A stretch of 34,576 bases of DNA from a virus (Duplodnaviria > Caudoviricetes): the IMG/VR virus record IMGVR_UViG_3300034682_000127, positions 1 through 34,576 of that record, one strand, 5' to 3'. Position numbers and translations under genes: made by a program. The notes below the pieces were generated by a model. The model searched no databases. It had not been told where the DNA came from and saw only the letters and a list, made by a program, of their open reading frames with translations. Shown one piece after another: positions 208 to 34,068 of this stretch (its first letter is position 1; every line of letters starts with the position of its first letter).

Positions 208-235
208 ATTTAACATAATAATCAATATATTGGCG
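208..235 (-). repeat. Left dif-like site (attL): canonical XerD arm, degenerate XerC arm
   Basis: Minus strand reads CGCCAATATAT-TGATTA-TTATGTTAAAT. TTATGTTAAAT is the XerD arm of E. coli and Vibrio dif. Confidence 0.85.
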
Positions 236-275
236 ATAAGTTAAAAATTACCGCCAAAATCAAGAGGATAGTGCA

Positions 276-587
276 TTATGCCGCTGCGCTATTGGTTAAA
301 ATGTCGCCGCCTTTTGAAGCCCTTTTAGCTACATCCTTCCAAAAGTTAAGCATTTCATAATTTCCGGTTCTTTCTTCGCGTTCAACATGAACGGATGCCA
401 TAACCCGCAAGGGATCAACATCCAAAAGGTCGGCAATTTGGAGCGCTAGAGAATCATCCATAAAACTGCGGCCAGAGCGGTAATTTGCAATGCGTGACGT
501 TCCGGTGGAAAGTTTCTTTGCAAGCTGATAGTCAGAAGTCAGGCCATAAGCGGCTTTGACGGCGTCAAGGAATTCGACCGTTTTCAT
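276..587 (-). CDS. HTH repressor of the filamentous-phage/satellite type (DUF3693-like)
   Basis: FLDAVKAAYGLTSDYQLAKKL...IANYRSGRSFMDD..ALQIADLL and a C-terminal W..VAK pattern. Transcribed divergently from the early operon. Confidence 0.75.
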   Translation of the reverse strand: MKTVEFLDAVKAAYGLTSDYQLAKKLSTGTSRIANYRSGRSFMDDSLALQIADLLDVDPLRVMASVHVEREERTGNYEMLNFWKDVAKRASKGGDILTNSAAA

Positions 588-654
588 GTTTTCTTTCCCA
601 TTTGTTCAAAAAATCCGCTGTAAGTTTAGATCAATACGTCAAGTCGCGTAACAC

Positions 655-687
655 CTCAATCGGATTGCGTGACTCAATCAGATTGAG
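655..687. promoter_or_regulatory. Tandem palindromic operators in the divergent repressor/early promoter region
   Basis: CTCAATC-G-GATTGCG (655-669) and perfect CTCAATC-A-GATTGAG (673-687). Possible rightward -35 TTGCGT (665-670) and -10 TAGCCT (689-694). Confidence 0.7.
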
Positions 688-827
688 CTAGCCTGATAAC
701 GCTTTCCCAAAAAGCAAAAAATCCCTACGGGCGGTCAGTTGGTTTCTTCACACCAGCTGACTTAGCCCGACCTACTGTAGGGGTAGGGTTAAGGGGTAGG
801 TCAAAAACACACAGTGGAGTATCCAGC

Positions 828-1118
828 ATGGATATAAATACAGTACATTCCGAAAATGAACACAAACTTAAAGCCACATTAGAGCTTTTGACGTACATGG
901 CAGAACATGCCAGCGACGACAAAGCTGCTGCCGATAGCATCAAATCAACCATTGCCTGTATCAAAGACTGCGGTAGCGATAACGCGATCAGTCCTGAGCA
1001 GGCCAAGCGCAACGCCTCCTACCTTGACCAAATTAAATCCTTTCTAAAACCAGCCAAAGCCGTTACGCAGTCAGCCAAGCCTGTTTACCAAAACCGATTG
1101 ATGGGGCTGCCGCTATGA
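828..1118 (+). CDS. Hypothetical early protein
   Basis: GGAG RBS. First gene of an ATGA-coupled early operon. Confidence 0.7.
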   Translation: MDINTVHSENEHKLKATLELLTYMAEHASDDKAAADSIKSTIACIKDCGSDNAISPEQAKRNASYLDQIKSFLKPAKAVTQSAKPVYQNRLMGLPL

Positions 1119-1357
1119 AAAACCGTCATTACCAACAAAAAACAGCCCTGGCGCTGTTATTCGTGCAGTCCTGTTTTATTGCCGGAGCCAAGTTTATGGG
1201 TGGTGAGGAAGGCAAAAAGCGGGTTTTGTTATCAGAAGTAACAATGCGAGCCAGCTTCTTTGTTAGTCCAAAGTGCGCCACGGTTGCACGCCGCATAGCA
1301 AGCGCCAGAATAGAACGCGCCTTACGTCAATTAAATGGACGGAGGCTGCCAGCATGA
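1115..1357 (+). CDS. Hypothetical early protein
   Basis: ATGA overlaps at both ends. Confidence 0.65.
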   Translation: MKNRHYQQKTALALLFVQSCFIAGAKFMGGEEGKKRVLLSEVTMRASFFVSPKCATVARRIASARIERALRQLNGRRLPA

Positions 1358-1746
1358 GCAACGTAACCAGCATTGAACAAATCCGCCGCGAAGCTGCGGC
1401 CAGGTCTCTGGAAATTGAAGCAAATAATTTGATGTGCGCGACAATGGAAAAAGACGAAAACTATTTTTTAACAGCCCGATTAGCCAAGTTATTCAAGGAC
1501 AGAGCGCAAAAGTACCGCGACGGTTTATTGCCGCTTACTTTGATGTGCCCAGGCTGCGGTATTCAGTTGCTTAAAGAGCTGGAAGGCGGCTACCACTGTT
1601 TTTGCCGCTTCTGTGTTCAGAAATTTCCGCCAGCGCCAGACGCCAACGGCTTTATTTTAGTTGGCACCTATCCAAACTTTGAGTGGAAACCAGTCACAAA
1701 GAGCGCTGTTGCTTACATCCAGAACAACGGGAAGGTGGCGCTATGA
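1354..1746 (+). CDS. Hypothetical protein with C-terminal Cys4 zinc-finger-like domain (GTYPNFEW motif)
   Basis: Start reassigned to ATG 1354 (GGAGG RBS, ATGA overlap). Contains CPGC...CFCRFC. Confidence 0.7.
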   Translation: MSNVTSIEQIRREAAARSLEIEANNLMCATMEKDENYFLTARLAKLFKDRAQKYRDGLLPLTLMCPGCGIQLLKELEGGYHCFCRFCVQKFPPAPDANGFILVGTYPNFEWKPVTKSAVAYIQNNGKVAL

Positions 1747-2195
1747 ACAGCATAAAAGAAAACAGCCAGTTGCTGAGCCAGTTCGCCAGCTTTGTGACTA
1801 TGCCTTTGCAGATCAAAGCCTACCAAATTAAACAAGGCGACACGGTGGAATACGTCACCGGAAGCATTGCAGAGCTGACCACCCAACACGGCAAGATTGA
1901 GTTTAGCCACACTAGGCCTATCGCTTTGGGTGATTACTTAATTACTGCAATGGTTAATGGCGTCTGCTACGCGTTGCACATGGATAAGCAGACATTCGTT
2001 GGCATTTATGCGCCACAGGCCGAACACGTTCCCACGGCGATAAACGAAAGCGCAGCAAAAGAGCTGATCGAACAAGCCAATGTTTTAGAACGGCTGCCAG
2101 CGCTAAACCACACCACCAGAAAAGCCAAAACCAAAGTAGCCAACACGCTTAAAAGCGTGGCTTTCCTGTTGCGTAACGGGGAGAAGCCAATATGA
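1743..2195 (+). CDS. Hypothetical early protein
   Basis: Start reassigned to ATG 1743 (ATGA overlap, GAAGG upstream). Confidence 0.7.
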   Translation: MNSIKENSQLLSQFASFVTMPLQIKAYQIKQGDTVEYVTGSIAELTTQHGKIEFSHTRPIALGDYLITAMVNGVCYALHMDKQTFVGIYAPQAEHVPTAINESAAKELIEQANVLERLPALNHTTRKAKTKVANTLKSVAFLLRNGEKPI

Positions 2196-2665
2196 ACAAT
2201 TTCAAAGACCAAGCCTACAAGCTTTCACCGCCAACAGGCCGTGGAACTGGCTTTAAGTTAGAAGAAGGCAATTACGATAACGGCCATGTTTGGAGAAGTA
2301 ACAGGGGTTTGGTTGAAACAATCCAAGGGATCGTTATTGCTTCCAGCTATTACTACGAAAAAAGCAAAAAACAAGGTAGCTGCCTGAGCATCATCAAAAA
2401 CGGTATGCAGCATCACCGCTTCTTTGAAAAAGAGTACACACAGAAAACGCTGGTTACTCTGGCTAAAAATTTTGCTGCAGATGTATTCAGCAACGAATTA
2501 GCCAGCGCAGCCGCGCACGATGCAGAAGTGGCAGCCAAAGCAATAGAAGAAGCCGCAGATTACATGATGGAGTATCTGGGCTTACCGAAGGACATAACTT
2601 CGGTTTCGACCATAGCACTTAAAGAATATGCGGCGAATATCAAAGCTAAGGCAGGTATCAAATGA
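2192..2665 (+). CDS. Hypothetical early protein
   Basis: ATGA-coupled, GGAG RBS. Confidence 0.7.
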   Translation: MNNFKDQAYKLSPPTGRGTGFKLEEGNYDNGHVWRSNRGLVETIQGIVIASSYYYEKSKKQGSCLSIIKNGMQHHRFFEKEYTQKTLVTLAKNFAADVFSNELASAAAHDAEVAAKAIEEAADYMMEYLGLPKDITSVSTIALKEYAANIKAKAGIK

Positions 2666-2919
2666 CTATCGGTTCCTTTGATATTCCATGTTCAGGCTGT
2701 GGCGTGAATTTAACGCAGGACAATATCGGCGGGTATCGCTGTTACTGCGATACCTGCGTTGCAGCCATACCACCAATGCCAGAAGCGCCGAAAGGAGCTG
2801 GCTTTATCCTCAGTGGCACCTATCCAAACTTTGAATGGCATGCCGCCACGCAAATGGTGGTTAAGCCGTCAACGCTTAGCCAGTGGCCGAACTTCACGGA
2901 CGAGGATATACCACAATGA
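2662..2919 (+). CDS. Small Cys4 zinc-finger-like protein, paralogous to the C-terminus of 1354-1746
   Basis: CSGC...CYCDTC...GFILSGTYPNFEW. Confidence 0.7.
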   Translation: MTIGSFDIPCSGCGVNLTQDNIGGYRCYCDTCVAAIPPMPEAPKGAGFILSGTYPNFEWHAATQMVVKPSTLSQWPNFTDEDIPQ

Positions 2920-3728
2920 ACAAGCCGTTTTTAAAATGGGCTGGTGGCAAGTCGAAACTGGCGGCCCGTATCAGCGCTGTGTTGCCAAAGGCTAAGTGCC
3001 TGGTCGAGCCGTTTGTGGGGGCTGGTTCAATTTTCCTGAACACGGATTATGAAGCCTATGTGTTGTGCGACATAAACCCCGACCTGATCAACACATTCAC
3101 GCAGCTAAAAAACCAGCCAGCGGCCTTTAGTGCCGATGCAGAGGCGCTTTTTGTGCCAGCTAACAATACAGACGCCATGTTTCGCCAACTGAAAGCCCGG
3201 TTTAATTCCACTGCGGATCAGTACGAAAAGGCGTTGTTGTTCGTGTACCTGAACCGCTTTTGCTTTAACGGCCTGTGCCGGTACAACAAGAAAGGCGAGT
3301 TTAATGTGGCCTTTGGTAAATACGCCTCGCCGTACTTTCCAAAAGAAGAACTGGCCGCTTTCGCCAGCCGCTTAGACCGTGCAGAGCTACATTGCCGCAG
3401 CTTTGAAGAAACCTTCAAACACCTGCCAGCCGACAGCGTTGTGTATTGCGATCCGCCCTACGTGCCGCTATCAAACACCGCCAACTTTACAGCCTACAGC
3501 ACAGGCGGTTTTGGCACAGTCGAACAGCGCTATTTGGCCTATCTGGCGAAAAACTGCCAAGTGCCTGTGGTTATTTCAAACCACGATACAGCCGAAAGCC
3601 GAGGCCTGTACTCAGGCGCAGAACTGCAGTGCTTTGAAGTACAGCGCAGCATATCAACCGACATCGAAAACAGGGGCAAAGCCAAAGAACTGATCGCCTC
3701 GTTTATGCCACAGGAGAAGGCAGCATGA
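2916..3728 (+). CDS. dam: Dam-family DNA adenine methyltransferase
   Basis: KPFLKWAGGK, EPFVGAGS, FNGLCRYN and DPPY motifs. Start at ATG 2916 with GAGGA RBS. Confidence 0.95.
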   Translation: MNKPFLKWAGGKSKLAARISAVLPKAKCLVEPFVGAGSIFLNTDYEAYVLCDINPDLINTFTQLKNQPAAFSADAEALFVPANNTDAMFRQLKARFNSTADQYEKALLFVYLNRFCFNGLCRYNKKGEFNVAFGKYASPYFPKEELAAFASRLDRAELHCRSFEETFKHLPADSVVYCDPPYVPLSNTANFTAYSTGGFGTVEQRYLAYLAKNCQVPVVISNHDTAESRGLYSGAELQCFEVQRSISTDIENRGKAKELIASFMPQEKAA

Positions 3729-4615
3729 TAATTACAGCAAACAGCTATTTCAGCGGCATAGGCCTGCTGGACTTGGGTTTAATGCAAGCCGGAATTGTCA
3801 TCAACAGCGCCTTTGAACTGGATGCAGACGCTTGTAAAACTTACAGGGCGAATCATCAGCACAAGCTGATCCAGTGCGACTTGTCCCAGCAGTTGGTTAT
3901 GGAGCAAGAAAGCTGCGACATCATGGCTTTTACTTACCCATGCACCAAGTACAGCACTATGGCGGATATAAACGGAACCCGCACCGGTGACGATTTATTC
4001 CTGCATGCGTTGCGTCATTTAGCCATAGCAAGGCCAGAAGCATACATGGTTGAAAACGTGCCAGGCATGCGCGCTTTTCCGGTGGTAATGGAAGCCATGA
4101 GCAGGTTGCCGGATTACTACGTGCAGGTGTTTTGCCCGATTAAAACCGAAACTTGGTTACCACAACGCCGTGACAGATTGATCATTATTGGCACACGCCG
4201 CCAGTTCGCAATTCGGCCGCCAGAAGGAACAAGGGCTATCAGCCTTGCGGATGTCGTGGAAGCAGATCCGCAGGTAACTTTACCCACTGCAATAGCCACC
4301 AGAATGAGCGGCCAGTACCGTGATTTACCAATTATTTCAGACCCAGCAAAAGGCGATATAGCGCCAACCTGCATTGCACATTATGCCAAAGACAAAAGCA
4401 CCCGCCTTATTGCGGATAAACGTTTTCCGTTAGGGGTTCGCCCTTACTCAGTACGTGAATACGCACGCCTTCAAGGCATACCGGATTCGTTCAAATTTCC
4501 AGTGTCAGAAACCGCCGCTTATCGCCAGATAGGCAACGGCGAACCAGTGGATATGGGCCGTTGGGCAGGAAAGGAATTAGTGCGTTATTTCAAACACAGG
4601 AGCTTAGCAGCATGA
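3725..4615 (+). CDS. C5-cytosine DNA methyltransferase (orphan)
   Basis: FSGIG (motif I), catalytic YPC, ENVPG, PQRRDR, REYARLQG and QIGN motifs. Confidence 0.92.
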   Translation: MIITANSYFSGIGLLDLGLMQAGIVINSAFELDADACKTYRANHQHKLIQCDLSQQLVMEQESCDIMAFTYPCTKYSTMADINGTRTGDDLFLHALRHLAIARPEAYMVENVPGMRAFPVVMEAMSRLPDYYVQVFCPIKTETWLPQRRDRLIIIGTRRQFAIRPPEGTRAISLADVVEADPQVTLPTAIATRMSGQYRDLPIISDPAKGDIAPTCIAHYAKDKSTRLIADKRFPLGVRPYSVREYARLQGIPDSFKFPVSETAAYRQIGNGEPVDMGRWAGKELVRYFKHRSLAA

Positions 4616-4794
4616 CAGCAATAGCCGTAGGAATCCTAACTGGCCTGTCGTGGGCTTTGAATCTGTTTTTGCTGATCAAAGAAGCGAATAAACCGCTAAC
4701 CAGGTCAGAAAAAATCGCAAAAGTTACATCACAAACTCTGCTTGTTGTGATGGTCATTTTATTAATTAATTTCCAAAGATTGGTGACAGCATGA
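4612..4794 (+). CDS. Small two-TM membrane protein
   Basis: ATGA-coupled start at 4612. Two hydrophobic segments. Confidence 0.55.
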   Translation: MTAIAVGILTGLSWALNLFLLIKEANKPLTRSEKIAKVTSQTLLVVMVILLINFQRLVTA

Positions 4795-5174
4795 GCCAGA
4801 AACCAAATACAGCCGCAGTAGCGGCAATCACAAATTTCCGTGTTCCGGCTGGCCGTGCTGTAGCCGTTTTAAAAGACAAGCTACAGGGCTTAATGGCTAT
4901 AGCGCCTGTCGGTTATTCCAATGGCGGTACAGAAGTGCATGAGCGCTTGGGCTTTATTCGCCACATAAACCCTGATCCAACCTGCGAACACGCCGCCTTT
5001 GATTTTATGTACACCGACGAAGAAGGCACCGCAGAAACCACAATCGTAGACGACGAAGAAATAACATTGTGCCTGCTGCCAAACCAGATGCATTTGCTGG
5101 CGAAGTTTCACCGACAAGCTTCTGCATCATGGGTCTTTGAAGCCTATGAAAAAGGCGAGGGGTTGCAGTCATGA
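4791..5174 (+). CDS. Hypothetical protein
   Basis: ATGA-coupled in the early operon. Confidence 0.65.
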   Translation: MSQKPNTAAVAAITNFRVPAGRAVAVLKDKLQGLMAIAPVGYSNGGTEVHERLGFIRHINPDPTCEHAAFDFMYTDEEGTAETTIVDDEEITLCLLPNQMHLLAKFHRQASASWVFEAYEKGEGLQS

Positions 5175-5383
5175 AATACCCACAGATATGCACAGCTATG
5201 GGAATTGTCGGAATTCTGGCAATCACCTTTATCGGCATTTACCCAAACAAAACCACAAGCCACGCCGAGTACTGCGCCGAAGAGCTGGTATCACGCAAGC
5301 CAGTAAACGGCCGCCTGGTTGAATCGCGTACCTGCAAAAGCTGGGTAGGTTGGCCAATTGAAATTCGCGAAGTAAAGCAGTGA
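5171..5383 (+). CDS. Small protein with N-terminal hydrophobic anchor and two distal Cys
   Basis: ATGA-coupled, GAGGGG RBS. Confidence 0.55.
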   Translation: MKYPQICTAMGIVGILAITFIGIYPNKTTSHAEYCAEELVSRKPVNGRLVESRTCKSWVGWPIEIREVKQ

Positions 5384-5390
5384 TCAGGTC

Positions 5391-7355
5391 ATGCACTTAA
5401 ACCCAGCCCTTAACCGCGACCAGCAGCGCTTTGTCGACAACATGCTGCACGGCCTGCCGAAGTCTTTCACGGCAGGCCTTTGGCCGTTGGCGCAGGCAGC
5501 AAAAGACAATCCAACACCGGAAAACAACAAAGCCTTTCGTAAAGCAGCAGTGAAAAAGCGGCAGCAGTACGGCCGCAAACTGCGCTACCTGCAACAGTTC
5601 AAAATACCCGCCAAGGTGATCAATCATAAAGAAAGCACTAAAAAGCTGGCCGACGAACTGGCCCAGCAGTGCTTTAGCGACATGGTAGAAGCCGCCGAAG
5701 GCTTGGGGCAGGAATACACCGAACACGAAGACAGAGTAAAAGCGGTGTACGACATTGTTTGTCAGCTTAGCGTGCAGCGCCTGCCGCAAGTGCAGCCGCC
5801 GCTGTGGGGCATGGAAACCGACACTTTAGCCATGGAATGCGCTTTATTGCGGATCCAGTGTGCCAAGTGGTGGCGTCGTAAGCTGTTAAAGCTGCGCCGT
5901 CAGCACCTTGAAACACTGGAAATACTGCAAGGGCAGGTTGGTAAAGGGGTTAGCCCATACGCCAGCAAACGCGCTGTTGCAGAGTTTATCCGCGATAAAG
6001 CAGCACAACGCCGCTGGGCAGAGTCGTTAACACTGGTCAATGAATGCGGCGACGAAATAGCTCTGATCAATGCCATTGAAGCCAGTACAGCCAACCCTGA
6101 AAACGCCAGGGCTGAACTGATGAAACGAATTCGCGGCCTTGAAGAGTGGGCCGAAGAAATCGGCTTTGGTGCCGTCTTTATCACAGTAACAGCGCCGTCG
6201 GATTATCACGCAACCAGCAACAACTGGAACGGCAGCACACCCAAAGACACCAACCGTTACATGGTCGACACCTGGGCGAAAGCCCGTGCCAAGTTAAAAA
6301 GGGAAGGTGCTGAGTATTTTGGTGTACGGGTAGCTGAACCGCATCAAGACGGTACGCCACACTGGCACATGATGTTATTCGCGCCAAAGGGCGACCTTAA
6401 GGCGATTTGCCGTTGTATTCGCTGGTACTTCTGCAAAGAAAACAAAGCCGAGCTGTTAGCCCGTTTTAAAAACCGCAAAAAGTTACGCAAGCTTTACCGC
6501 AAGGCGCGCCAACATTGGGGCTATCAAAAGTCGAAAGGAATAAAAGCCAGCGAACCGCGCAAGTTTCATTACCCGTTCCAACCGCGTTTTGATGCGGAAT
6601 ACATCGACCCAAGCAAGGGCAGTGCGTCGGCTTATATCGCTAAATACATCAGCAAAAACATCAACGGTTTCGAAGTGGCTGATCTGATAGATACCGAAAC
6701 AGGCAAAACCTTGGGTGATGGCGTGATGAACGTCAAAACATGGGCTAGCGTGTGGAGCGTTCGCCAGTTCCAGTTTCAGGGCTGCGACCCAATAACCGCA
6801 TACCGCGAAATTCGCCGTGTGCGCGAAGCCTTCACCGAAGAACACATGAAAGAACTAGAGCAATTGCGCCAGGCTGCAGACAGCAACGACTTTGTAAATT
6901 TCATCAGAGCATTACGCACCATAAAGGTAGAAATTCAATACGAAGTTACCCCATACGGCAACGAGTACGGCGAAGCAGTAAAACGAGTGAAGGGAATAGG
7001 GACCAGAGCAGTGGCAGTTTTGACGCGGCCGCATAAGTGGGAAATGCGCCGGAGCGCTGTTAAGTCTGGCGCAGCCGGACAATCTTGGACTTGTGGCGCT
7101 AACTGTACGGGTGGATCTGAGGATCGCGGTTATGTCCGAAACTCAGGTAAACCAACAGCGCCAACTCAAAAGCCGCCAGAAAAGGCCAATATCCACGGAC
7201 TTGACGCCGAGGCCATGACCATGTTGCAGCGAGGCTATACGGTAAACATTGCAGGCCAGCGCTGGAAAATACGCCACGGCACCGTGGAACAGCTGCCAGA
7301 ACCACCAAATTTAAGCCAGAGGGTGAATTATGTTGTTGCTCGAGGTCGACCATAG
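5391..7355 (+). CDS. P2 gpA-family rolling-circle replication endonuclease
   Basis: FITVTAPSDYH, RVAEPHQDGTPHWH (HUH), YIAKYISKNI (two catalytic Tyr), RQFQF. Confidence 0.95.
   Translation: MHLNPALNRDQQRFVDNMLHGLPKSFTAGLWPLAQAAKDNPTPENNKAFRKAAVKKRQQYGRKLRYLQQFKIPAKVINHKESTKKLADELAQQCFSDMVEAAEGLGQEYTEHEDRVKAVYDIVCQLSVQRLPQVQPPLWGMETDTLAMECALLRIQCAKWWRRKLLKLRRQHLETLEILQGQVGKGVSPYASKRAVAEFIRDKAAQRRWAESLTLVNECGDEIALINAIEASTANPENARAELMKRIRGLEEWAEEIGFGAVFITVTAPSDYHATSNNWNGSTPKDTNRYMVDTWAKARAKLKREGAEYFGVRVAEPHQDGTPHWHMMLFAPKGDLKAICRCIRWYFCKENKAELLARFKNRKKLRKLYRKARQHWGYQKSKGIKASEPRKFHYPFQPRFDAEYIDPSKGSASAYIAKYISKNINGFEVADLIDTETGKTLGDGVMNVKTWASVWSVRQFQFQGCDPITAYREIRRVREAFTEEHMKELEQLRQAADSNDFVNFIRALRTIKVEIQYEVTPYGNEYGEAVKRVKGIGTRAVAVLTRPHKWEMRRSAVKSGAAGQSWTCGANCTGGSEDRGYVRNSGKPTAPTQKPPEKANIHGLDAEAMTMLQRGYTVNIAGQRWKIRHGTVEQLPEPPNLSQRVNYVVARGRP
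7084..7106 (+). other. Putative rolling-circle origin inside gpA
   Basis: CTTG^GACTTGTGGCGCTAACTGT aligns with the P2 ori CTCG^GAGTCCTGTCAATAACTGT, at the same relative position in gene A. Confidence 0.7.
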
Positions 7356-7762
7356 TCGGCAATGTCTGCGCCAGCTGCTACCGTCACCAATAGACAGCGC
7401 TGACAGCACAGGCCTTGCTGCTGGTTTTACAGCTGAAGCACAGTTAGTTGTGACTACGCTGTCCAGAATAGTCAGGGGTAGCTATGTCAGCAGCTAGTTA
7501 TTTGGGCGCCAAAAATGGCAGTGGTGTTTACCAGGCGATTATCAACCTGATGCCACCCCATGACACTTACATCGAAGCGTTTTTAGGCACCGGTGCAGTA
7601 ATGCGCAGGAAAGGCCCAGCCAGCCGCAGTATTGGTATTGATAAAAATCAGCAGTGCATAGACGGTTTTGTCTATGAAGTACTCGGAATAGATGCAGCTG
7701 ACTACGTGGTACCAGAACTTGTTTTAGGGGACGCCTTTAGCTACATAGCGAACTTTGACTAC
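7352..7762. repeat. Array 1 of the 18-bp palindromic motif RYAGHY-N6-RDCTRY
   Basis: Copies start at 7352, 7440, 7468, 7658 and 7688. Near-matches at 7390 and 7745. Confidence 0.8.
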
Positions 7763-8181
7763 GCTGCAGCTGGTAAAACTCTGATCTACTGCGACCCGCC
7801 TTATGTGCATAGCACCAGAACAAGCAACGCCAGGTATCAGCACAACTAACCGACGATGAGCACAGAGAATTGCTGGCCATACTAAAAGCAGTGCCTGCGC
7901 TGGTGATCTTATCAGGCTACCGCAACGACATTTACGAACAGGAATTATCAGACTGGTGGAGCATGGATTTTCAAGCCATGACACGCGGCGGGGTAAGAAC
8001 CGAAACTGTGTGGTGCAACTTTGAGCCAGGTAAAATCCATTACCATAGCTATGCCGGTAAAAACGCCACCGACAGGCAACGAATTAAGCGCAAGGCTGCG
8101 CGCTGGGCCAAGGACTTTGCCAAACTACCGCAGCCAGAACAGCAAGCAATACTGGCCGCTTTGTTATCAGCTGGAGAGTAA
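7484..8181 (+). pseudogene. Small D12-class N6-adenine methyltransferase interrupted by a 1-bp frameshift
   Basis: YLGAK, YIEAFLGTGAV and DPPY lie in the 5' frame. LTDDEHRELL, ILSGY and RTETVWCNF lie in the -1 frame. Adding one base at 7843/7844 (CAC [G]AA CTA ACC GAC) rejoins them. Confidence 0.8.
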
Positions 8182-8199
8182 AATAATAGGAGCTTTGCA

Positions 8200-8534: not shown

Positions 8535-8783
8535 ATGCGGATACTATGCCCAACGTGTTCAGCAAAAGCGGTGATCGGGAAAACAGACAGAATCAGTGTT
8601 GCTTACGCAAACCTTTACTGTTCCTGCACTGATCCTGAATGCGGCCACACCTTTGTTAGTACAGTGTCCTATAGCCACACCTTGAGCCCGTCGGCAAAAA
8701 CAGCGACTGAATTAGTATCAGCGCTGTTTAAAGCATTGCCGCCAGACCAACGCAAAAAGCTGCAGCAGGAACTGGCGTTTTAA
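8535..8783 (+). CDS. ogr: Ogr/Delta-like zinc-finger late transcription activator
   Basis: CPTC...YCSCTDPECGHTF...HTLSPS. Convergent with the portal gene. Confidence 0.92.
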   Translation: MRILCPTCSAKAVIGKTDRISVAYANLYCSCTDPECGHTFVSTVSYSHTLSPSAKTATELVSALFKALPPDQRKKLQQELAF

Positions 8784-11738: not shown

Positions 11739-11824
11739 GCACAGAATAAAGCCCCGTGATTAACCATTTACAACTGCTTAAGCTGTCTGCATTAACGCAT
11801 ATTTTCACAGCAAAGAGCGGACAA

Positions 11825-12712: not shown

Positions 12713-12765
12713 TCGCTGCCAGTCAGCACTTAAACCTTAGTCAAAATTAGCAGCGAGAATAAAAG

Positions 12766-13794: not shown

Positions 13795-13877
13795 GCCATA
13801 ACCAGCCAGGCACTGATTGGGTGCCTGGTTATTCATCCACATGATTTTAGTAAACCGAAGAACAGCAGGAAAAAGCC

Positions 13878-20561: not shown

Positions 20562-20582
20562 CAGCAAACAACCGGGGCACAA

Positions 20583-22313: not shown

Positions 22314-22642
22314 TCACCTACAGAGATTTGCACATCAGCAACGGCGATATAGTGCTTGATGCCGGGTTAAACCCGACCTATTTAACTGACCGCGCAGCCA
22401 TAGCACAGGACATAGTTCACGCCATTTTAGAAACCGGCATTGCCCATTTGCTGGTAAGTGACAGACGCACAGGCGTAACCGCAGACACCAAAATAAAACT
22501 GAAACTGCTGGTAGAAGACGACGTGCGGATCATGCCAGGCACAGTACGCATTGAAGAAGTAAGCAGCGGCCAATGGTGGGTATTTGCAGACACCATCGAC
22601 TTTGGCCCTATTTCATCCAGCATCACAGGCGGAGCACTCTAA
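22310..22642 (+). CDS. Baseplate protein (DUF2590-like)
   Basis: IAQDIVHAILETG, LLVEDDVRIMPGT; synteny. Confidence 0.8.
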   Translation: MITYRDLHISNGDIVLDAGLNPTYLTDRAAIAQDIVHAILETGIAHLLVSDRRTGVTADTKIKLKLLVEDDVRIMPGTVRIEEVSSGQWWVFADTIDFGPISSSITGGAL

Positions 22643-23842: not shown

Positions 23843-24468
23843 TGGCTATTGAATGGAACGTCATCACCAAAATGCCTTACTGGCTGGCGCGTCCGGCCAG
23901 CGAGTTGGACAAGCTACGCAAAGGCGCGGTGCGGTTTTGGCAGCGCTTGGCAGACATGCTGCAATTCGTGAACAACCAGCTGGACCCTATGACAGCAGAA
24001 CTGGCCTTTGTCCACCTGTTGGCATGGGAGCGCGACATAGAGCAAATACCCACAGAAACAGAACTGATCTACCGCACCCGGGTTAAATACGCCTTACCGT
24101 TCGCCAAAGGCGCAGGTAGCACAGCCGGTTGGCTGGATATGTTTAAAAAGCTGGGTATGCCCTATGTAGCCATAGGCGAACGCTTCAGCGCCACCGACTG
24201 GGACGTCATAGACCTGCTGTTGTTGGACGTAGACGTCAGCACAAGACAAGCCTTGCTGGGTTCAATTTGCCGTCAGTACGGCCGAACAACACGGCGCTAC
24301 AGGTACAGCACAGTCGCAAAAATGCCAGTGCAAACGGCATTAGCAGCATTTGACAACCACAGCAGCTTTAACGTGGCAAAAGCCAACACCAACCTTTTGC
24401 CAGCAAAAAGATTTATGACAATGGACAGCGGATCAAGCTACCAGGTCGCAAAAACTCAGCAGAATTAG
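23842..24468 (+). CDS. Baseplate/tail protein (gpI-like)
   Basis: LDPMTA, LLAWERDI, YRTRVKYA, QYGRTTRRY. Confidence 0.85.
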   Translation: MAIEWNVITKMPYWLARPASELDKLRKGAVRFWQRLADMLQFVNNQLDPMTAELAFVHLLAWERDIEQIPTETELIYRTRVKYALPFAKGAGSTAGWLDMFKKLGMPYVAIGERFSATDWDVIDLLLLDVDVSTRQALLGSICRQYGRTTRRYRYSTVAKMPVQTALAAFDNHSSFNVAKANTNLLPAKRFMTMDSGSSYQVAKTQQN

Positions 24469-24480
24469 AAGAGGTAAACC

Positions 24481-27456: not shown

Positions 27457-27504
27457 AAAATATTTGGACAAGGAATTAACCTTAAAATAATAGAGGTGTA
27501 GAAC

Positions 27505-27753
27505 ATGGCTTTGCAAAATAACATTGAATATAAGGGCATAGTTGTCGAGGGCAGCTATATCAGGATTAATCGCTTTGAAGGGAATAAAGGCACGATTAAC
27601 TTTATCGTAACTTACCATAAAGATAGCCAGTCACAGCCATTCAACTTTAAAGAGTTTGAATGCAGCAACAACTTAAATTCGGGGAATATTATAGAACAAG
27701 GGTATATGCATCTAAAAACGTTGCCTGAGTTTGCTGATGCTGTTGACTGTTAG
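27505..27753 (+). CDS. Small tail-fibre-associated protein
   Basis: GAGG RBS. C-terminal QGYMHLKTLPEFADAVDC is a pattern I recall from genes following tailspikes. Confidence 0.7.
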   Translation: MALQNNIEYKGIVVEGSYIRINRFEGNKGTINFIVTYHKDSQSQPFNFKEFECSNNLNSGNIIEQGYMHLKTLPEFADAVDC

Positions 27754-27765
27754 CGAAGTAAAAGC

Positions 27766-28230
27766 ATGCTAAATAAAACAAAAGTAGCGTTAGTATCCGC
27801 CCTAATCATCCTATCCGCCTGCAGCCCTCCAACGCTGCAGCAGGAGCACAGCTGGGCGCTGAAAAAGCACCAGTACATCACTGATCAAGAACAGTACGGC
27901 ATACCCAACAAATGGGTGGCAAGCCTGAAGGGCGACTGTGAAGACTACGCCTTAGTGATGAAAAACAAAGTAGGTGGCACCATGCTTTACGTGCGTGCCT
28001 ACACCGGCGAGGCGCATATTGTGCTACTTGTTGATGGCGTATTTGACAAAAACAACAAGCCCATTTCTGGGCAGGTGTTAGATAACATGTCAAAAGTGGT
28101 TTACCCTCTGGGCGAAATGCGGCACAAATACGTTTACACCATCAAAGAAACCGATATAGAACACTGGTTAGCCAAAGCCCAGGCACACGACGAAGCCATA
28201 GCAAATCAGGTGGCCTATGCTAACCCTTAA
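27766..28230 (+). CDS. Lipoprotein with transglutaminase-like cysteine peptidase (BTLCP/LapG-like) motifs
   Basis: Signal peptide with lipobox LSA-C. GDCEDYA, HIVLLV and VLDN give a Cys-His-Asp triad. Confidence 0.78.
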   Translation: MLNKTKVALVSALIILSACSPPTLQQEHSWALKKHQYITDQEQYGIPNKWVASLKGDCEDYALVMKNKVGGTMLYVRAYTGEAHIVLLVDGVFDKNNKPISGQVLDNMSKVVYPLGEMRHKYVYTIKETDIEHWLAKAQAHDEAIANQVAYANP

Positions 28231-28756
28231 CGCAACCCAAATACTGCTAAAAGCCATTCGGATCACGGCCAGCCAAGAGCTGGCAACCGAAGACGCCAGC
28301 GGCCAGAGCAGCAGCACCGACACAGCCGAAACAGGCATGAAAGCCAAAATGTTATCCGTAACGGGCTTCATCCCGTTTGCTGATCAACAGCAACTAACCG
28401 ACCTGTTCACGCTGGCCGAAGCCACCGAAGCCGGGGCGCGGGTAACGTACCGCATCAGCAACCGAACCGCGTCGGCGCTGGGTGTAAAAGAAGTAAAATT
28501 CAGCAGCAGCATTGAAGCTGTGGAACAAGAAACAACCCGCCAATGGAGCATTAGTTTCACACTGGCGGAAGTGCGAAGCGTACCGCAGAAAAAAGAAGAA
28601 CGGACACCACAAGCCGCAGCAGCACAGCAGGGCGCAACGGGCCAAACGGCGGCCGAAGACAACGCGCCACCAGAAACCGAAATACCATTAACCGGCTTTA
28701 CTGCCTTTTTAAAGTCAGTCGATAACAGTCTGGCAGCAGACACAGGCAACGCATAA
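28217..28756 (+). CDS. Conserved HP1/K139-type tail/baseplate protein
   Basis: DASGQSSSTDTAETGMKAKMLSVTG, WSISFTLAE; synteny. Confidence 0.75.
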   Translation: MLTLNATQILLKAIRITASQELATEDASGQSSSTDTAETGMKAKMLSVTGFIPFADQQQLTDLFTLAEATEAGARVTYRISNRTASALGVKEVKFSSSIEAVEQETTRQWSISFTLAEVRSVPQKKEERTPQAAAAQQGATGQTAAEDNAPPETEIPLTGFTAFLKSVDNSLAADTGNA

Positions 28757-29446
28757 ATGGCAGAGCCCAACGCCAAATTTATCACCCGAGCCTACATTGG
28801 CAGCCAAAAAGTGGCTGTCAGTGATCATTGGGTAGTACTGCAAGCCAAAAGCCCAGGCACCTGCCAAATTACCATCAACCAAAGCGCAGAACGCCTTACA
28901 CCTGTAGCCTTTGAAATGGGTTGGGGCGAAATGATAGACCGCGTGTTTTTTGGTTACATCGAACGGATCATGCCAGCAGCCAACGGCCACTACACCGTAT
29001 TTTGCCGCGAACTATCATCAGCGCTGGCCAACAACATCAGCGTAATGCTACGCCACCCAACACTGCGCCAGGTATGCGCCGAAATCACAGCACAAACAGG
29101 CCTTGAATTCGTATTGCCAGAAAAGGCATACACCAACACCGCCATACCAAGCTTTTACGCCGACACCTCAGGCTACGCCATGCTGGACAACTTAGGCCGC
29201 TGCTTCAAAATTCCAGATTTCATCTGGCAACAGCAAGGCAACGGCAAAATCTACTTAGGCAGCTATGCCGATTCATACTGGAACGGCAAAAACATAGCGA
29301 TACCGCAAAACCTGATGACCGAGCAGCAAAACGGAAAAACCGCCACCATACCAGCCACGCCAAAACTACGCCCAAATGCCACCGCCAACGGCCAGCGCAT
29401 TACCAAGGCCGAGTTCAAAGGCACCAACCTGACAATCACCTGGTAA
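28757..29446 (+). CDS. Baseplate hub-like protein
   Basis: FFGYIER, FCRELS, LRHPTL, FIWQQQGNGKIYLGS. Confidence 0.72.
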   Translation: MAEPNAKFITRAYIGSQKVAVSDHWVVLQAKSPGTCQITINQSAERLTPVAFEMGWGEMIDRVFFGYIERIMPAANGHYTVFCRELSSALANNISVMLRHPTLRQVCAEITAQTGLEFVLPEKAYTNTAIPSFYADTSGYAMLDNLGRCFKIPDFIWQQQGNGKIYLGSYADSYWNGKNIAIPQNLMTEQQNGKTATIPATPKLRPNATANGQRITKAEFKGTNLTITW

Positions 29447-29450
29447 AGCT

Positions 29451-30188
29451 ATGGAAGCAATCATCAAAAAATTAGTGTTACGCCTCTGGCCAGAATTAAG
29501 CGCCGGGTTACACCTGCCGCGCTGGGGCCAGGTAGTTGCACTGCCAGAACTGCCAGCCGAAGACGGCGAACGCGGCAGCGACCCGTTTTACCCACGTTAT
29601 GCAGTAGACGTACAACTGCTGGACGAAAACGGCACCGCAACTAAATCCAAAGTACTGCAAGCCGTGCCACTTCCACTCATGGGCGCAGGCGACAAAGCAG
29701 GGCGCATGCAACCACCGGCCATCGGCAGCATTGTCGAAATAGCCTTTGCCTACGGACGCCCGGATAAACCATTTATTCGCACAGTATTACCATTCGGCTG
29801 GAACCTGCCGCCCATCAAAGAAGGTGAGTACCGCACCCAAACCAAAGAAGGCGTATACCAGCACATAGACGAAGCGGGAAACTTTGAAAACAAAACGCCA
29901 GAAAACCTAAAAGACATCATAGGCAAACTGGCCGAACTGCAATGCCAAACACGAAAAGTGATTGCCACCACAGAGCAAGACCACCGCAGCCCAAAAACAT
30001 GGCTGGGCAGCGAAGGGGAAAACGTGCTTAAGTTGCTGTCTGAACTCATGGCAACAGTAAAAGCATTAGCCACCGAATGCGCAGGCCACACCCACGCAGG
30101 GCCAGCCCCTGATCAAGCCGCAGCATTTACCGCCAAAGCCAACGAAGCCCAAGCCCAGAAAAGCAGGCTAGACCCAATCACCAAATAG
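29451..30188 (+). CDS. Baseplate spike-like protein (gpV-like)
   Basis: PELSAGLHLP, YAVDVQLLDE, VEIAFAYGRPDKPFIR, C-terminal HTH (His-x-His) metal motif. Confidence 0.75.
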   Translation: MEAIIKKLVLRLWPELSAGLHLPRWGQVVALPELPAEDGERGSDPFYPRYAVDVQLLDENGTATKSKVLQAVPLPLMGAGDKAGRMQPPAIGSIVEIAFAYGRPDKPFIRTVLPFGWNLPPIKEGEYRTQTKEGVYQHIDEAGNFENKTPENLKDIIGKLAELQCQTRKVIATTEQDHRSPKTWLGSEGENVLKLLSELMATVKALATECAGHTHAGPAPDQAAAFTAKANEAQAQKSRLDPITK

Positions 30189-30416: not shown

Positions 30417-30764
30417 ATGCATGAAGTGCAAACAAAAGAAGTAGAACAGGAAGACGTAGAAAAGCTTTACCAGTCAGTGTTTAAAGTTGCGAAACATTTT
30501 TTAAATCAGTCAAAGCGTTTTACCATCCACGAATTAGCAATGCATAACGAACCCACATACGACGAAGTGGCAAAGTTGGCAAACAACTTGGCAGCGATTA
30601 TCGGGGTTACAGCAAGTACTGGCGGATGGGAAGAAGAACGGATCGCTTTAAACGCCAGGCAAGCGGCCCTATTTATGGAGCAAATGGCGCTGGCAATTTC
30701 AGCGAAGGACGATAAAGCTTTATATGAAGCTGCCGACAAGCTTGAGAAGATGGACTTTATTTAG
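30417..30764 (+). CDS. Hypothetical accessory (moron) protein
   Basis: Upstream TTGACG and AT-rich leader suggest its own promoter. All-helical appearance. Confidence 0.7.
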   Translation: MHEVQTKEVEQEDVEKLYQSVFKVAKHFLNQSKRFTIHELAMHNEPTYDEVAKLANNLAAIIGVTASTGGWEEERIALNARQAALFMEQMALAISAKDDKALYEAADKLEKMDFI

Positions 30765-30836
30765 TACTATGGCGGCCGTTTAGCGTATAGTTAAACGGCG
30801 TAATTAAAACAGATTACGTATAAACGGGAGCGTCTT

Positions 30837-30956
30837 ATGAAAAATACCAATGAATTCACAAAGAAAAAACTTTTAAAAGAAGGTTTTGCTTGTGTGAAAA
30901 AAATTGAGGCTTTGCTTAAATCTGTAGATGCAAAACTGCTACAGAAAGCAGCCTGA
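30837..30956 (+). CDS. 39-aa basic small protein (absent from the ORF track)
   Basis: GGGAG RBS; MKNTNEFTKKKLLKEGFACVKKIEALLKSVDAKLLQKAA; followed by a terminator. Confidence 0.55.
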   Translation: MKNTNEFTKKKLLKEGFACVKKIEALLKSVDAKLLQKAA

Positions 30957-30971
30957 TAAATTACTTTTGAT

Positions 30972-31000
30972 AAAAGCCGCACCTTGCGGCTTTTTTGTTT
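30972..31000 (+). terminator. Rho-independent terminator
   Basis: AAAAGCCGCA-CCT-TGCGGCTTTTTTGTTT. Confidence 0.85.
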
Positions 31001-31132
31001 TTAGACACCCACATTCCGCAATAAATACCCATTCATCCAGCTCAAGGCAAAAGCCGTCCCTAAACTTGAACAAAAAAACGAAAGCGGCTAGTTTAAGTAT
31101 TCCTTGGGGGAACTGATAAATAGGGATTATTT

Positions 31133-31993
31133 ATGACTAAGAAAAAAGACCACACAGTCGCAGACTCTGAAAAGGCGCTTAATTCACTATTAGGCGTGGT
31201 TGAAGGTATCACCATAGATAGCCTAATCAACCAAGCAGAAATACAGTTTTTAGTAAACTGGATGAACGAGCACCGAATCAACGAAGAACAGCAGCCATAC
31301 AAAGAGTTGATACCATTGGTGGCAGAAGTAGTTTCAGATGGAGTTATTACCAAAGAAGAGCTGCTAAGAATAAAGCGGGTGTGCAACATGCTGGCCGCCC
31401 ACAACTACTTCAGCGAACAAACCGCAGATATACAGCGCCTGCACACATTATTGGCAGGAGTTGCAGCAGATCAGGTTATATCAGTTGAAGAGCTAACCGG
31501 AGTTGCACAGTGGTTAATAGACCATAGCCACCTGCAGAACACCTATCCATACGACGAAGTGCTAACCAAAATAACCACAGTGCTGAAACACAAAGTAATA
31601 GACCAGCATGAGCACAACGAACTGATCAAACTGTTCGGTGAATTCGTTTCAATGTACGACGACAAAACCATTACTAACCCAACAGTGAACGAAAACAGCC
31701 TGTGCGAAACAAACCCGCAGATAAACTTTAACGGCCTGTTCTGCTTCACAGGTAAATCATCCAGGTACAGCCGCACTGACTTCAAAAAGCTGATCACAGA
31801 ACTGGGCGGAAAAGTAACCGACGACATCACTACACGGCTTAACTATCTGGTTATTGGTGACAAAGGCCAGCCACAATGGAAGTTCGGCAGTTATGGCGGC
31901 AAGATAGACGAAGCCATCAAGCTAAAGAAGAACGGCCACCCAATCCTAATAATCCATGAGAAAGACCTGCACGCCGCAGTCGATGCCCGTTAA
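31133..31993 (+). CDS. BRCT-domain protein with duplicated helical (TerB-like) N-terminal region
   Basis: C-terminal FCFTG...R...ITELGGKV...LNYLVIG...YGGKIDEA...IIHE. N-terminal repeats GITIDSLINQAE..L..W and GVAADQVISVEE..V..W. Confidence 0.85.
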   Translation: MTKKKDHTVADSEKALNSLLGVVEGITIDSLINQAEIQFLVNWMNEHRINEEQQPYKELIPLVAEVVSDGVITKEELLRIKRVCNMLAAHNYFSEQTADIQRLHTLLAGVAADQVISVEELTGVAQWLIDHSHLQNTYPYDEVLTKITTVLKHKVIDQHEHNELIKLFGEFVSMYDDKTITNPTVNENSLCETNPQINFNGLFCFTGKSSRYSRTDFKKLITELGGKVTDDITTRLNYLVIGDKGQPQWKFGSYGGKIDEAIKLKKNGHPILIIHEKDLHAAVDAR

Positions 31994-32019
31994 CCTGTAA
32001 ACAACCAACCACCCCCAAG

Positions 32020-32055
32020 AAAAATGGCCGCCGCAAAAAGCGGCCATTTTTATTT
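32020..32055 (+). terminator. Rho-independent terminator
   Basis: AAAAATGGCCGC-N8-GCGGCCATTTTTATTT. Confidence 0.85.
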
Positions 32056-32272
32056 GCCGCCCAACCAACTACATCAGCAAACATCACGGTATCTGTACGG
32101 CATCAAATAAACAGCCTCACTGTAAGCCACCACCACGCGACAAACAAATAAAGACGAAAGCGAACGAAAGTAGGGCGCTGATCACGCATCAGGGCCAACC
32201 AGAGGCGCGAAAACGAGCCAAACGCACCGCATCACGGAAACCAAGGGCAGGGAAAAGCCGCGCCACGGAAAC

Positions 32273-32298
32273 GGCACTCTTCCTCACCCTCCTGCGCG
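32273..32298. other. Putative cos (cohesive end) site
   Basis: GGCACTCTTCCTCACCCTCCTGCGCG resembles the pyrimidine-rich P2-family cos strand (P2 GTGCTTTCCCCGCCTCGCC). Lies in a non-coding gap right of the tail genes, followed by repeated TTTTCAGT motifs. Confidence 0.6.
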
Positions 32299-32692
32299 CC
32301 CTGTTTTTGCGTTTTTTTTCAGTTTTTTGCCCCTACAGTTCATACCCGCAGGCCGCGCCATTTCTAAAGGCTTGCGAGGATCGAAGGATCTGAAAAGAGT
32401 GCTGTTTTTTTCAGTGTTTTTCAGTTTTGCACTATGCCTTTAGTGCAAAGCCAAAAAGCTAAGTGCATGAAATAAAAGCGGATTACCTGGATTCCGTGAG
32501 GTTTTAGCCAAAGCAGCGATTCAGAGGGGACAAGGTAAGTTATTGAAAATAAATAATAAACTCAAAAATAAAACTGAAATAAAAAACGCCTGAAAGGATC
32601 TACATAAAAGCGGGGCACAAAATATACAATTGAAAAAGGCACCGTTTTGACGTACATTAAGCAAATATGAGCAAGCAACAGAGGCAAACAAA

Positions 32693-32980
32693 ATGAGCGC
32701 CATGTTAGACATGAAACAGGACCGGATTAATTTAAGGTTAAAGCCAAGCGCTAAACGCGATTTAGAACGTGCAGCCAGCTTTGAAGGTAAAACAGTCAGC
32801 AGTTTTATTCTCAGCAGCGCATTAGCGCATGCAGAAAAAACCATACACGAACACGAAACCATGCGCCTGAACAAACAGGACTCAGAAGTGTTCTTCGCAG
32901 CGCTTTCAAAACCAGTGAAGTTTAACAGCGCACTGACAGCAGCATTTGCAGAGCATGAAAAACGTGTGACCACTAAATGA
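32693..32980 (+). CDS. DUF1778/RHH antitoxin (TacA/AtaR-like)
   Basis: DRINLRL...LERAA...TVSSFILSSAL...FFAALSKP. Confidence 0.92.
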   Translation: MSAMLDMKQDRINLRLKPSAKRDLERAASFEGKTVSSFILSSALAHAEKTIHEHETMRLNKQDSEVFFAALSKPVKFNSALTAAFAEHEKRVTTK

Positions 32981-33477
32981 CTGAACAGCAAAACCTAATC
33001 ATAAGGCCACTGGACGGCCAGCATAAAAGAGCAGCGTTTACCTGCGGAACACCATCACTGGACCAGTACATTCAAAAGCAGGCAGGTCAAGACATAAAGC
33101 GCCGTGTAAGCCGCGTATTTATTGCAAGTACACAACAGCTTCCTAATGAAATAGTGGGGTACTACACACTATCCAGCATGTCGATAGAGCTAAGCCACTT
33201 ACCGCCTGAAATTACCAAAAAGCTACCACGCTACCCAGTGCCAGCCGCACTTATTGGCAGGCTGGCAGTCAGCCAGAGCGCACAGGGCCAGGGCGTTGGT
33301 AAAATGCTATTGGTTGACGCCATCAAAAGAACAATGGCTGTTAGCCAGGACATCGCCATTTACAGCATGGTAGTAGATGCTATCGACCAAAACGCCCAGG
33401 CATTCTATGAAAGGTTTGGCTTCACCCAGCTAACGACCAATAAAAATCGTTTATTCCTGCCATTACAAACCATCTGA
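32977..33477 (+). CDS. GNAT acetyltransferase toxin (TacT/AtaT-like)
   Basis: FTCGTPSLDQY, GYYTL, PVPAALIGRLAV, QGQGVG, VVDA, FYERFGF. ATGA-coupled to the antitoxin. Confidence 0.93.
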   Translation: MTEQQNLIIRPLDGQHKRAAFTCGTPSLDQYIQKQAGQDIKRRVSRVFIASTQQLPNEIVGYYTLSSMSIELSHLPPEITKKLPRYPVPAALIGRLAVSQSAQGQGVGKMLLVDAIKRTMAVSQDIAIYSMVVDAIDQNAQAFYERFGFTQLTTNKNRLFLPLQTI

Positions 33478-33486
33478 AAGCTTCAA

Positions 33487-33504
33487 TGGGCGCAGCAGCG
33501 CCCA
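33487..33504. terminator. Hairpin between convergent genes
   Basis: TGGGCGC-AGCA-GCGCCCA. Confidence 0.5.
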
Positions 33505-33517
33505 ATCATCTAACGAC

Positions 33518-33901
33518 CTAAGTAGAGCGCTCAATCACCAGCTTTGGCACCTTATCCCAGTTAACGGCTTGCATCAGAAACGGCCAAAACTGAATAGTAC
33601 CCAGGCGAACCAAACGACCATCAGCCAGCAAAACACCATCATCACATACCTTAAGACCAGCCTTACGCCAACTGTATGGAAGCGAATCACCAGCGTAAAT
33701 CATTTCAAGTTGATGCCTGGCTTTAGGCGGAAATCCAGCCTTCAGCCATCGGCGAACAGTGCGGGGGGAAACTAAAAAGAACGAACAAATCTTCTCAATG
33801 TTAGGTATGGATTTAACATCAGTTGAGGTGATCTGAGTGTGTGAGAATCCAGTGAGCCACAATAATTGTTGATCTTTAATAGACCGAGTTTGCATTAACA
33901 T
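33518..33901 (-). CDS. HTH + DUF3653-like protein, candidate XafT-like Xer activation factor
   Basis: HTH IEKICSFFLVSPRTVRRWLKAG.P followed by LPYSWRKAGLKVCDDGVLLADGRLV, similar to the W-x-G..G-x-L-x-x-P-x-G pattern of DUF3653. Starts 140 bp from the dif-like site. Confidence 0.62.
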   Translation of the reverse strand: MLMQTRSIKDQQLLWLTGFSHTQITSTDVKSIPNIEKICSFFLVSPRTVRRWLKAGFPPKARHQLEMIYAGDSLPYSWRKAGLKVCDDGVLLADGRLVRLGTIQFWPFLMQAVNWDKVPKLVIERST

Positions 33902-34040
33902 AGACGTTTCAATTCCATTTAGTTATCTAAATCATGTTTTTCCCAGTTTTAGATAACTGCAAAAAACAGGCCTGTGTTTGGATTTTTTGAACGAACAGGC
34001 TAAAAAACGTTTTTGCTATTAATTATTGATGACTTACTTC

Positions 34041-34068
34041 ATTTAACATAATAATCATTATGTGATAC
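34041..34068 (-). repeat. Right dif-like site (attR), both arms well formed
   Basis: Minus strand GTATCACATAA-TGATTA-TTATGTTAAAT, compared with E. coli dif GGTGCGCATAA-TGTATA-TTATGTTAAAT. Confidence 0.88.

Follow-up and report, generated by a model that had tools for sequence, protein, structure and literature searches.

A complete P2-like tailed prophage of Rheinheimera lies in the chromosomal dif site, encodes no recombinase and probably integrates through host XerCD

It is assumed that a tailed temperate phage supplies its own integrase, and because of this assumption integrase-less tailed phages are read as lytic or defective. Among the described integrative mobile elements exploiting Xer recombination (IMEXs), the satellite TLC-phi and the filamentous phage VGJ-phi encode, beside the phage attachment site (attP), a helix-turn-helix (HTH) protein that activates Xer: XafT (PMC6744903, PMC9226527) and the more recently added XafV (bioRxiv 10.64898/2026.06.12.731946), respectively. 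A lysogeny module composed of a P16-type repressor and a P15-type gene is shared by dif-type double-jelly-roll (DJR) prophages, the CTX-I inoviruses of Vibrio and the Pseudoalteromonas phage PM2; it was described in 2025 for inoviruses and DJR phages only, in a paper that already counts the DJR double-stranded DNA (dsDNA) phages as IMEXs and treats IMEX arrays as specific to non-tailed phages (PMC12715192). Tailed Vibrio prophages use their own integrases, and the tailless ones at dif often carry integrases as well (PMC11630473). The Burkholderia phages phiE12-2, GI15 and PI-E264-2, published in 2010, are integrase-less P2-like myoviruses with the att site between gp24 and gp25, for which the authors proposed 'a different mechanism of integration' (PMC2920897); the words 'dif' and 'Xer' are absent from the accessible text of that paper, where the mechanism was left open. 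Likewise, 'tailed', 'Caudovir' and 'Myovir' do not occur in the accessible text of PMC6744903, and the accessible portions of PMC13026187, PMC11022660, PMC2612704 and PMC3448106 make no link of tailed phages to Xer or dif. Our literature searches found no description of a tailed IMEX, although subscription papers and supplements could hold one. Here we describe a candidate element of this kind in a 34,576-base virus contig with a rating of complete (IMG/VR record IMGVR_UViG_3300034682_000127; 'the window' denotes this whole stretch).

In our reading, the window contains a complete P2/HP1-type tailed prophage of Rheinheimera inserted in dif, which encodes no recombinase and likely integrates by means of the host XerCD, that is, a tailed IMEX; we give this reading a probability of roughly 0.88. 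A first-pass annotation of the same letters had proposed an integrase-less P2-like prophage at dif that hijacks Xer, and this proposal is supported, the dependence on XerC/D being argued from sequence. Its account of the known Xer users (filamentous phages, the TLC satellite and the gonococcal genetic island) has to be corrected by the DJR dsDNA phages, already IMEXs (PMC12715192), and its question whether such phages had been reported finds a partial answer in the Burkholderia phages, with the same att type and no mechanism (PMC2920897). The annotation had overlooked the gene pair at the two termini (276-587 and 33518-33901), the XerC arm of the host (34058-34068) and the fact that the core is native to this Rheinheimera clade and not that of E. 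coli. What is new here is the tailed virion of a probable IMEX whose portable module was known, plus a second lineage, represented by isolated phages, whose route had been left open.

The host of the element is Rheinheimera, and the empty site is known from genome G044, in which a single dif equals the site rebuilt from the window junctions in 28 of 28 bases, as had been expected of an unoccupied relative. Window positions 1-228 are 96.9% identical to this empty locus (74.8% to that of G012), and the right flank of G044 resumes after an insertion of about 1.1 kb. Among 43 Rheinheimera genomes the dif pattern was found in 34, once in 30 of them, and the core of the window in 12. On the complete chromosome of G012 both flanks adjoin the single dif at 2,277,722 of 4,628,354 (49.2% of the length), where the GC skew changes sign (positive in 11 of 11 samples before dif, negative in 11 of 11 after), so that the proposed location at the replication terminus was confirmed in this relative. 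The FtsK-orienting polar sequences (KOPS), counted with a motif that we take to be the relevant one, also converge on this dif, with 12 to 3 before it and 0 to 10 after. The host XerC arm and core are not those of E. coli, which raised the possibility of a plasmid-type or secondary dif-like site; this was rejected on the dif census of the 43 genomes and on the single dif at the skew switch of G012. The conserved gene in the right host flank has a homologue in 36 of the 43 genomes, and about 0.2-1.2 kb separate it from dif in the closest genomes; in genome G011 a dif-pattern match lies 43 kb from it, with no phage match between (G011:C1:440497-483711). In Rheinheimera dif sites in general the XerC arms are non-canonical and the cores of no fewer than five kinds (TGTATA, TGATTA, TTATTA, TGTTTA, TTCCCA/TTTCCA), and strains with the cores TGATTA and TTATTA co-occur in sequencing run X1. 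In this same run, which may be the source sample, one 33,939-bp contig of depth 14 spans the element, the host flanks being 350-1000 deep (350-1700 for positions 1-207), and contigs show empty-site continuations beside the lysogen; a single sample thus holds both states of the locus. Contigs of runs X1, X2, X4 and X6, the last three from two studies other than that of X1, bridge the right dif junction, and in X6 the left end of the element is joined to a different flank.

The element is bounded by a 17-bp exact direct repeat, ATTTAACATAATAATCA, starting at 208 and 34041 (spacing 33,833 bp) and made of an exact XerD arm (an 11-mer) and a 6-bp core, exactly as first annotated. Repeat length alone is weak evidence because 23 of 200 windows simulated with a Markov model contain some repeat of at least 17 bp, and it was rejected as a stand-alone argument; the content of the repeat carries weight, because base composition predicts 0.013 occurrences of the exact XerD arm per strand and exactly two were observed, one at each end. 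A third near-match to this arm at 33811, inside the terminal open reading frame (ORF), was treated as chance. The longest exact repeat of the window, of 21 bp, belongs to a paralogous 50-bp stretch of two early genes (1648-1697 and 2800-2849). As its core the element has the native one of the Rheinheimera clade of the window, which is not that of E. coli; it supplies this host core together with an exact XerD arm, so that the right end regains a full dif. The XerC arm on the phage side is degenerate, its fifth-innermost C being present in 20 of 20 host arms and in 0 of 10 phage-side arms. This is unlike the attP of TLC-phi and VGJ-phi, which deviate in the XerD arm; the degenerate XerD arm of the TLC type was not found here. 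The features of an IMEX were found in the insertion at a chromosomal dif (empty site equal to the rebuilt dif, single copy, at the skew switch), in a dif-like attP that regenerates dif, with exact XerD arm and host core at both junctions, and in the lack of an element-encoded recombinase, relatives included.

As regards this last feature, Pfam and PHROGs scans of 49 selected ORFs, from 172 listed, revealed no tyrosine or serine recombinase, and a six-frame search of the window with PF00589 and PF00239 gave no candidates at E ≤ 1. Nor did a profile built from 30 tyrosine recombinases, run over the six frames with no filter, find one in the window (best E 6.7); the profile recovered the integrases of phages C5a, PY3 and ACA1, which were among the sequences building it, plus one in an unrelated Ralstonia record. 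Neither a tyrosine recombinase nor a resolvase was found in or beside five complete relatives, whose hosts encode Xer-type recombinases outside the elements (told apart as XerC and XerD by motifs that we presume to be diagnostic). The first annotator's claim that no ORF resembles a recombinase, and the six-frame check suggested for it, were thereby borne out, and the cognate integrase that it had named as a possible refutation did not appear nearby.

A scan of species genomes with the rolling-circle initiator RepA retrieved 12 loci, seven in Rheinheimera, one in Alkalimonas and four in Pseudoalteromonas/Algicola, and an exact XerD arm follows the repressor in 8/8 of the Rheinheimera/Alkalimonas loci vs 0/4 of the others. 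Seven of these eight are P2-like and one is a DJR prophage; the P2-like relatives comprise five that a single contig holds in full (29.2-35.0 kb), another whose sequence is distributed over two contigs and a last one truncated where its contig stops. In all seven elements with both ends seen (window included) the two ends share the same core; four different cores are represented, and one right XerD arm has a single mismatch. All six P2 capsids of the 43 Rheinheimera genomes lie within dif-type elements, as does one in Alkalimonas, and the cultured hosts include Rheinheimera marina, R. mesophila and Alkalimonas mucilaginosa. Inside the elements 15 KOPS point toward the rebuilt dif and none away, a count whose p-value is too small because the elements are related and not independent. 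Several of the tailed elements stand in tandem arrays with inoviruses at dif. As a control, P2 capsids were searched in wider sets and found in 15 of 351 family genomes and 8 of 401 class genomes; at 20 other P2-capsid loci, several on short contigs and exclusive of two contig-edge capsid fragments (G097:C80, G369:C108), the repressor type, the terminal ORF and the exact XerD arm were found at 0/20 and an integrase at 11/20.

The closest structural relatives are Catalunyavirus C5a, PY3 and ACA1, HP1-like Peduoviridae of Pseudoalteromonas, which share the late gene order; most structural proteins are 55-83% identical to those of C5a and PY3. Unlike the window element, all three carry an integrase and their own repressor/excisionase genes and lack both a P16-like repressor and an exact XerD arm. 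In the RepA tree the sister of the 11-row dif-type clade consists of the Int-type tailed P2-likes of Pseudoalteromonas (root not tested), and the DJR prophage L014 nests within the clade (support 100/99); no direction of transfer is claimed because the tree has long branches (Burkholderia, one DJR row) and an untested root. L014 (L014:8020-21181, genome G006) is a 13-kb prophage at dif that shares the repressor (53%), RepA (59%) and the terminal ORF (37%), and further DJR elements lie at dif at L105 and L169/L170. In the Rheinheimera-type inoviruses at dif (L005, L007, L026, L045, L106) the core of the distal junction differs from that of the host, which contrasts with the tailed and DJR elements.

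At the two ends of the window element a P16-like repressor and a P15-like ORF of 127 aa take the place of int and cox. The family Peduoviridae is recognised by the P2 capsid, scaffold, terminases, gpA initiator, Ogr, contractile tail and 30-35 kb size, all found here, and by a regulatory region with int, C/CI and cox/apl (PMC3448106, accessible part), in whose place this pair stands. The repressor is 29% identical to PM2 P16 (E 7e-12), its profile matches VGJ ORF154 (E 1.6e-23), and among phages it matches DJR phages, inoviruses and Burkholderia Peduoviridae. As in the PM2/CTX-I module, a P16/RstR-type repressor lies at one prophage terminus and, by distant similarity, a P15/XafT-type gene at the other; unlike in the PM2, CTX-I and DJR systems, the module serves a 34-kb contractile-tailed Caudoviricetes genome. 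The gene order also matches VGJ orf154 - attP - orf136. The profile of the 127-aa ORF matches PM2 P15 with 89% probability (E 2.4e-6) and the terminal ORF of dif inoviruses with 95.5% (E 1.5e-8); the profile of the latter in turn matches XafV weakly (E 2.9e-4, small set), and P15 matches the VC1465/XafT family at 1.9e-7, still under the PF12375 and NF040522 cut-offs. Because direct matches are absent, the link to the proven activators of TLC-phi and VGJ-phi, a satellite and a filamentous phage, is transitive. None of Pfam, PHROGs, NCBIfam, tblastn (against phages) and Foldseek (against viral models) placed the ORF directly in a family. Among the ESM neighbours of the ORF, DUF3653 clusters occur at 0.90 (DUF3653 in 10-43% of members), and it has weak HTH matches and a structure model with a pLDDT of 78.5. 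Of three loci that a metagenome scan with this ORF yielded, one matches G002 and the other two come from DJR prophages in tandem. Every complete element has an ORF of one of two related families beside the att site; in the P2-like prophage of G005 (R. marina), both ends of which show an unusual core, the P15-like ORF is replaced by the inovirus-type one (L033:17816-18352). On these profile matches and positions, we consider the 127-aa ORF a candidate activator of Xer without FtsK, with the odds leaning somewhat in favour of that role.

The second, independent lineage is that of the Burkholderia phages. Like the window element, phiE12-2, GI15 and PI-E264-2 (Duodecimduovirus), PK23 and ST79 are Peduoviridae without an annotated integrase, and in the phiE12-2 group the att site, with a XerD arm and core, lies between a homologous repressor (gp24 in phiE12-2) and a small HTH gene. 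The attP of phiE12-2 (L165:17190-17215, NC_009236.1) equals the core plus the XerD arm and flank of the chromosome-2 dif of K96243, a site listed beside a phage late-control gene (PMC2731167 supplement), and 19 phage records (18 phages) carry the phiE12-2 cassette intact at at least 99%. Unlike the window element, the group has a distant host, and RepA and capsid are only 26-31% and 31-33% identical. ST79 has an 11-mer resembling the XerD arm in the interval that separates its homologous repressor from the HTH gene (L166:34950-34975), and no tyrosine recombinase was found in its six frames.

Several observations weigh against a tailed IMEX with its own activator, and we set them beside the alternatives. 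The 127-aa ORF has no PF12375 or NF040522 match, no direct match to XafV (hhalign 0.3%), nothing clear in the pTLC record and no Foldseek match at E ≤ 0.001 among viral models; it does not match the attP-adjacent gene of phiE12-2, and PM2 P15 itself was termed a transcriptional regulator (PMC12715192). An unlikely but serious alternative is that integration depends on Xer without a phage activator, FtsK or basal XerC inserting the circle and the 127-aa protein being a transcription regulator paired with the repressor. The missing direct DUF3653 or VC1465-family match and the fact that the phiE12-2 counterpart gene is not detectably related beyond the HTH would agree with this, as would the exact XerD arm and matched core that FtsK-driven integration favours (PMC9226527). 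However, the constant position of the two related ORF families beside att, the substitution in G005 of an ORF type whose profile matches XafV, the direct adjacency of both proven activators to attP (bioRxiv 10.64898/2026.06.12.731946) and the degeneration of the XerC arm in 10/10 phage-side arms argue for an activator.

Further points bear on the mobility of the element. Position at dif alone is no proof of Xer use because tailless dif prophages regularly carry integrases (PMC11630473); an accessory methyltransferase gene is frameshifted in the window copy; no attP-circle junction was found in the contigs of four runs (contigs drop rare forms); and in G006 the skew flips at the dif array too, yet the replichores look very unequal, so that this assembly gives weaker support. 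A defective prophage, put at dif by a phage integrase later lost or supplied in trans, would explain the frameshift and the unseen circle and would fit the use of Int by C5a, PY3 and ACA1, but we consider it very improbable: no recombinase remnant was found in the window or in seven relatives (RepA 46-94% identity), all of which keep the same terminal architecture, the element is polymorphic in one sample (14x vs 350-1000x for the host flank) and has its left end on another flank in X6, and phiE12-2 makes plaques and derives from a lysogen without Int (PMC2920897). Less probable still is a passive chimera, not mobile as a unit, in which P2 late genes recombined into a resident DJR or filamentous IMEX, since despite the genes shared with L014 and its place in the same RepA clade, no DJR capsid match was found in the window or the P2-like loci, the units measure 29-35 kb and keep their head, tail and lysis genes intact, Int-type tailed P2-likes form the sister RepA clade, and the att-bounded tailed unit was found in two genera at different array positions.

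Returning to a tailed IMEX, we propose that it works as follows. The circle formed after infection would carry the repressor, attP and the P15-like gene in this order and in one orientation, as in PM2 and VGJ, and XerCD would join dif with an attP composed of a degenerate XerC-side arm, a host-matched core and an exact XerD arm, the P15-like protein activating Xer without FtsK. We lean slightly toward XerD acting first, rather than XerC, given the exact XerD arm and the fully matched core; identical cores hide the crossover side, for which reason the order of exchange is unreadable from sequence. The weak XerC arm would shield the prophage from FtsK-driven loss, and upon induction renewed expression of the activator would permit excision, followed by gpA rolling-circle replication and P2-type packaging.

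The remaining gene content is that of a complete tailed phage (Table 1), with the replication, head, tail and lysis modules of the first annotation recovered by Pfam and PHROGs (Phage_GPA replication, Ogr, P2 head, HP1-type contractile tail, baseplate, fibre and a pesticin-like lysin). The early operon is partly common to the relatives, and the second adenine methyltransferase, in two frames in the window, is a single open frame in L007, L010 and L015. Matched head proteins are 57-73%, and those of the sheath and tube region 77-82%, identical to C5a; the order of the lysis genes is identical in C5a and PY3. The baseplate and tail-tip proteins (22310-30188) are 60-78% identical to G008 and C5a and 31-47% in G002, G003, G005 and G007, whose sheath and capsid are 76-87% identical, and the comparison indicates that the tail-tip module is swapped among relatives. 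The variable cargo adjoins the lysogeny module, is patchy across relatives and occupies the position of the hypervariable regions in PMC12715192. Its stretch 31133-33477 encodes a putatively TerB-like, BRCT-domain protein (BRCT by Pfam) and the TacA/TacT-like pair, with possible defence or addiction functions.

Table 1. Features of the window, by position.
Position	Strand	Feature	Basis
1-207		Host chromosome flank, XerD side of dif	Identity to empty loci G044, G012
208-235	-	Prophage-side junction: host XerD arm (208-218), core (219-224), degenerate phage XerC-side arm (225-235)	
276-587	-	XRE-HTH repressor, PM2 P16 / VGJ ORF154 / CTX-I RstR type	Sequence and profile matches
828-5383	+	Early operon: small unknown ORFs, methyltransferases, Dam-like (2883-3728) and cytosine (3725-4615)	Pfam/PHROGs
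5391-7355	+	P2 gpA-type rolling-circle initiator (RepA)	PF05840, E 2.5e-84
7484-8181	+	Second adenine methyltransferase, frameshifted in window copy	Comparison with relatives
8535-8783	+	Ogr/Delta late activator	PF04606
8800-11624	-	Portal and large terminase	Pfam/PHROGs
11756-17110	+	Scaffold, P2 major capsid, small terminase, head/tail completion	PF05929, PF05125, PF05944, PF05926, PF06891
17113-18682	+	Contractile tail sheath and tube (HP1 type)	phrog_907, phrog_1182, PF10772
18757-20110	+	Lysis region: pesticin-like muramidase and two membrane ORFs (putative holin)	PF16754, E 3.6e-47
20107-30188	+	Tail chaperone, tape measure, baseplate, tail fibre	Pfam/PHROGs
30417-33477	+	Variable cargo: unknown ORF, BRCT-domain protein, TacA/TacT-like toxin-antitoxin pair	Pfam/PHROGs
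33518-33901	-	127-aa HTH protein, distant PM2 P15 / XafT-like homologue, candidate Xer activation factor	Profile matches
34041-34068	-	Regenerated chromosomal dif: phage-supplied XerD arm, core, host XerC arm (34058-34068)	Equals G044 dif
34069-34576		Host flank, XerC side, with conserved Rheinheimera gene (34198-34575, -)	

Beyond this locus, we think it somewhat probable that tailed dsDNA phages are an unrecognised class of IMEXs, in which a portable cassette (P16-like repressor, dif-like attP, Xer activator and at times a rolling-circle initiator) passes between viruses of three realms at the dif array and has on at least two occasions, in Rheinheimera/Alkalimonas and in Burkholderia, turned P2-like phages to Xer integration. 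If so, integrase-less tailed phages can be true lysogens and would stack at dif with filamentous and tailless phages, and replication and lysogeny cassettes would be exchangeable between the three kinds. The integration route of phiE12-2 and GI15, open since 2010, would then be explained, and this answer for phiE12-2-type Burkholderia phages would be testable, just as the existence of cultured, harmless Rheinheimera and Alkalimonas hosts opens our claim on the window element to direct test; the answer would also bear on judging whether therapeutic phage candidates of the phiE12-2 type are temperate. Finally, the terminal ORF would represent a new family of activators for sites that combine an exact XerD arm with a disabled XerC arm.

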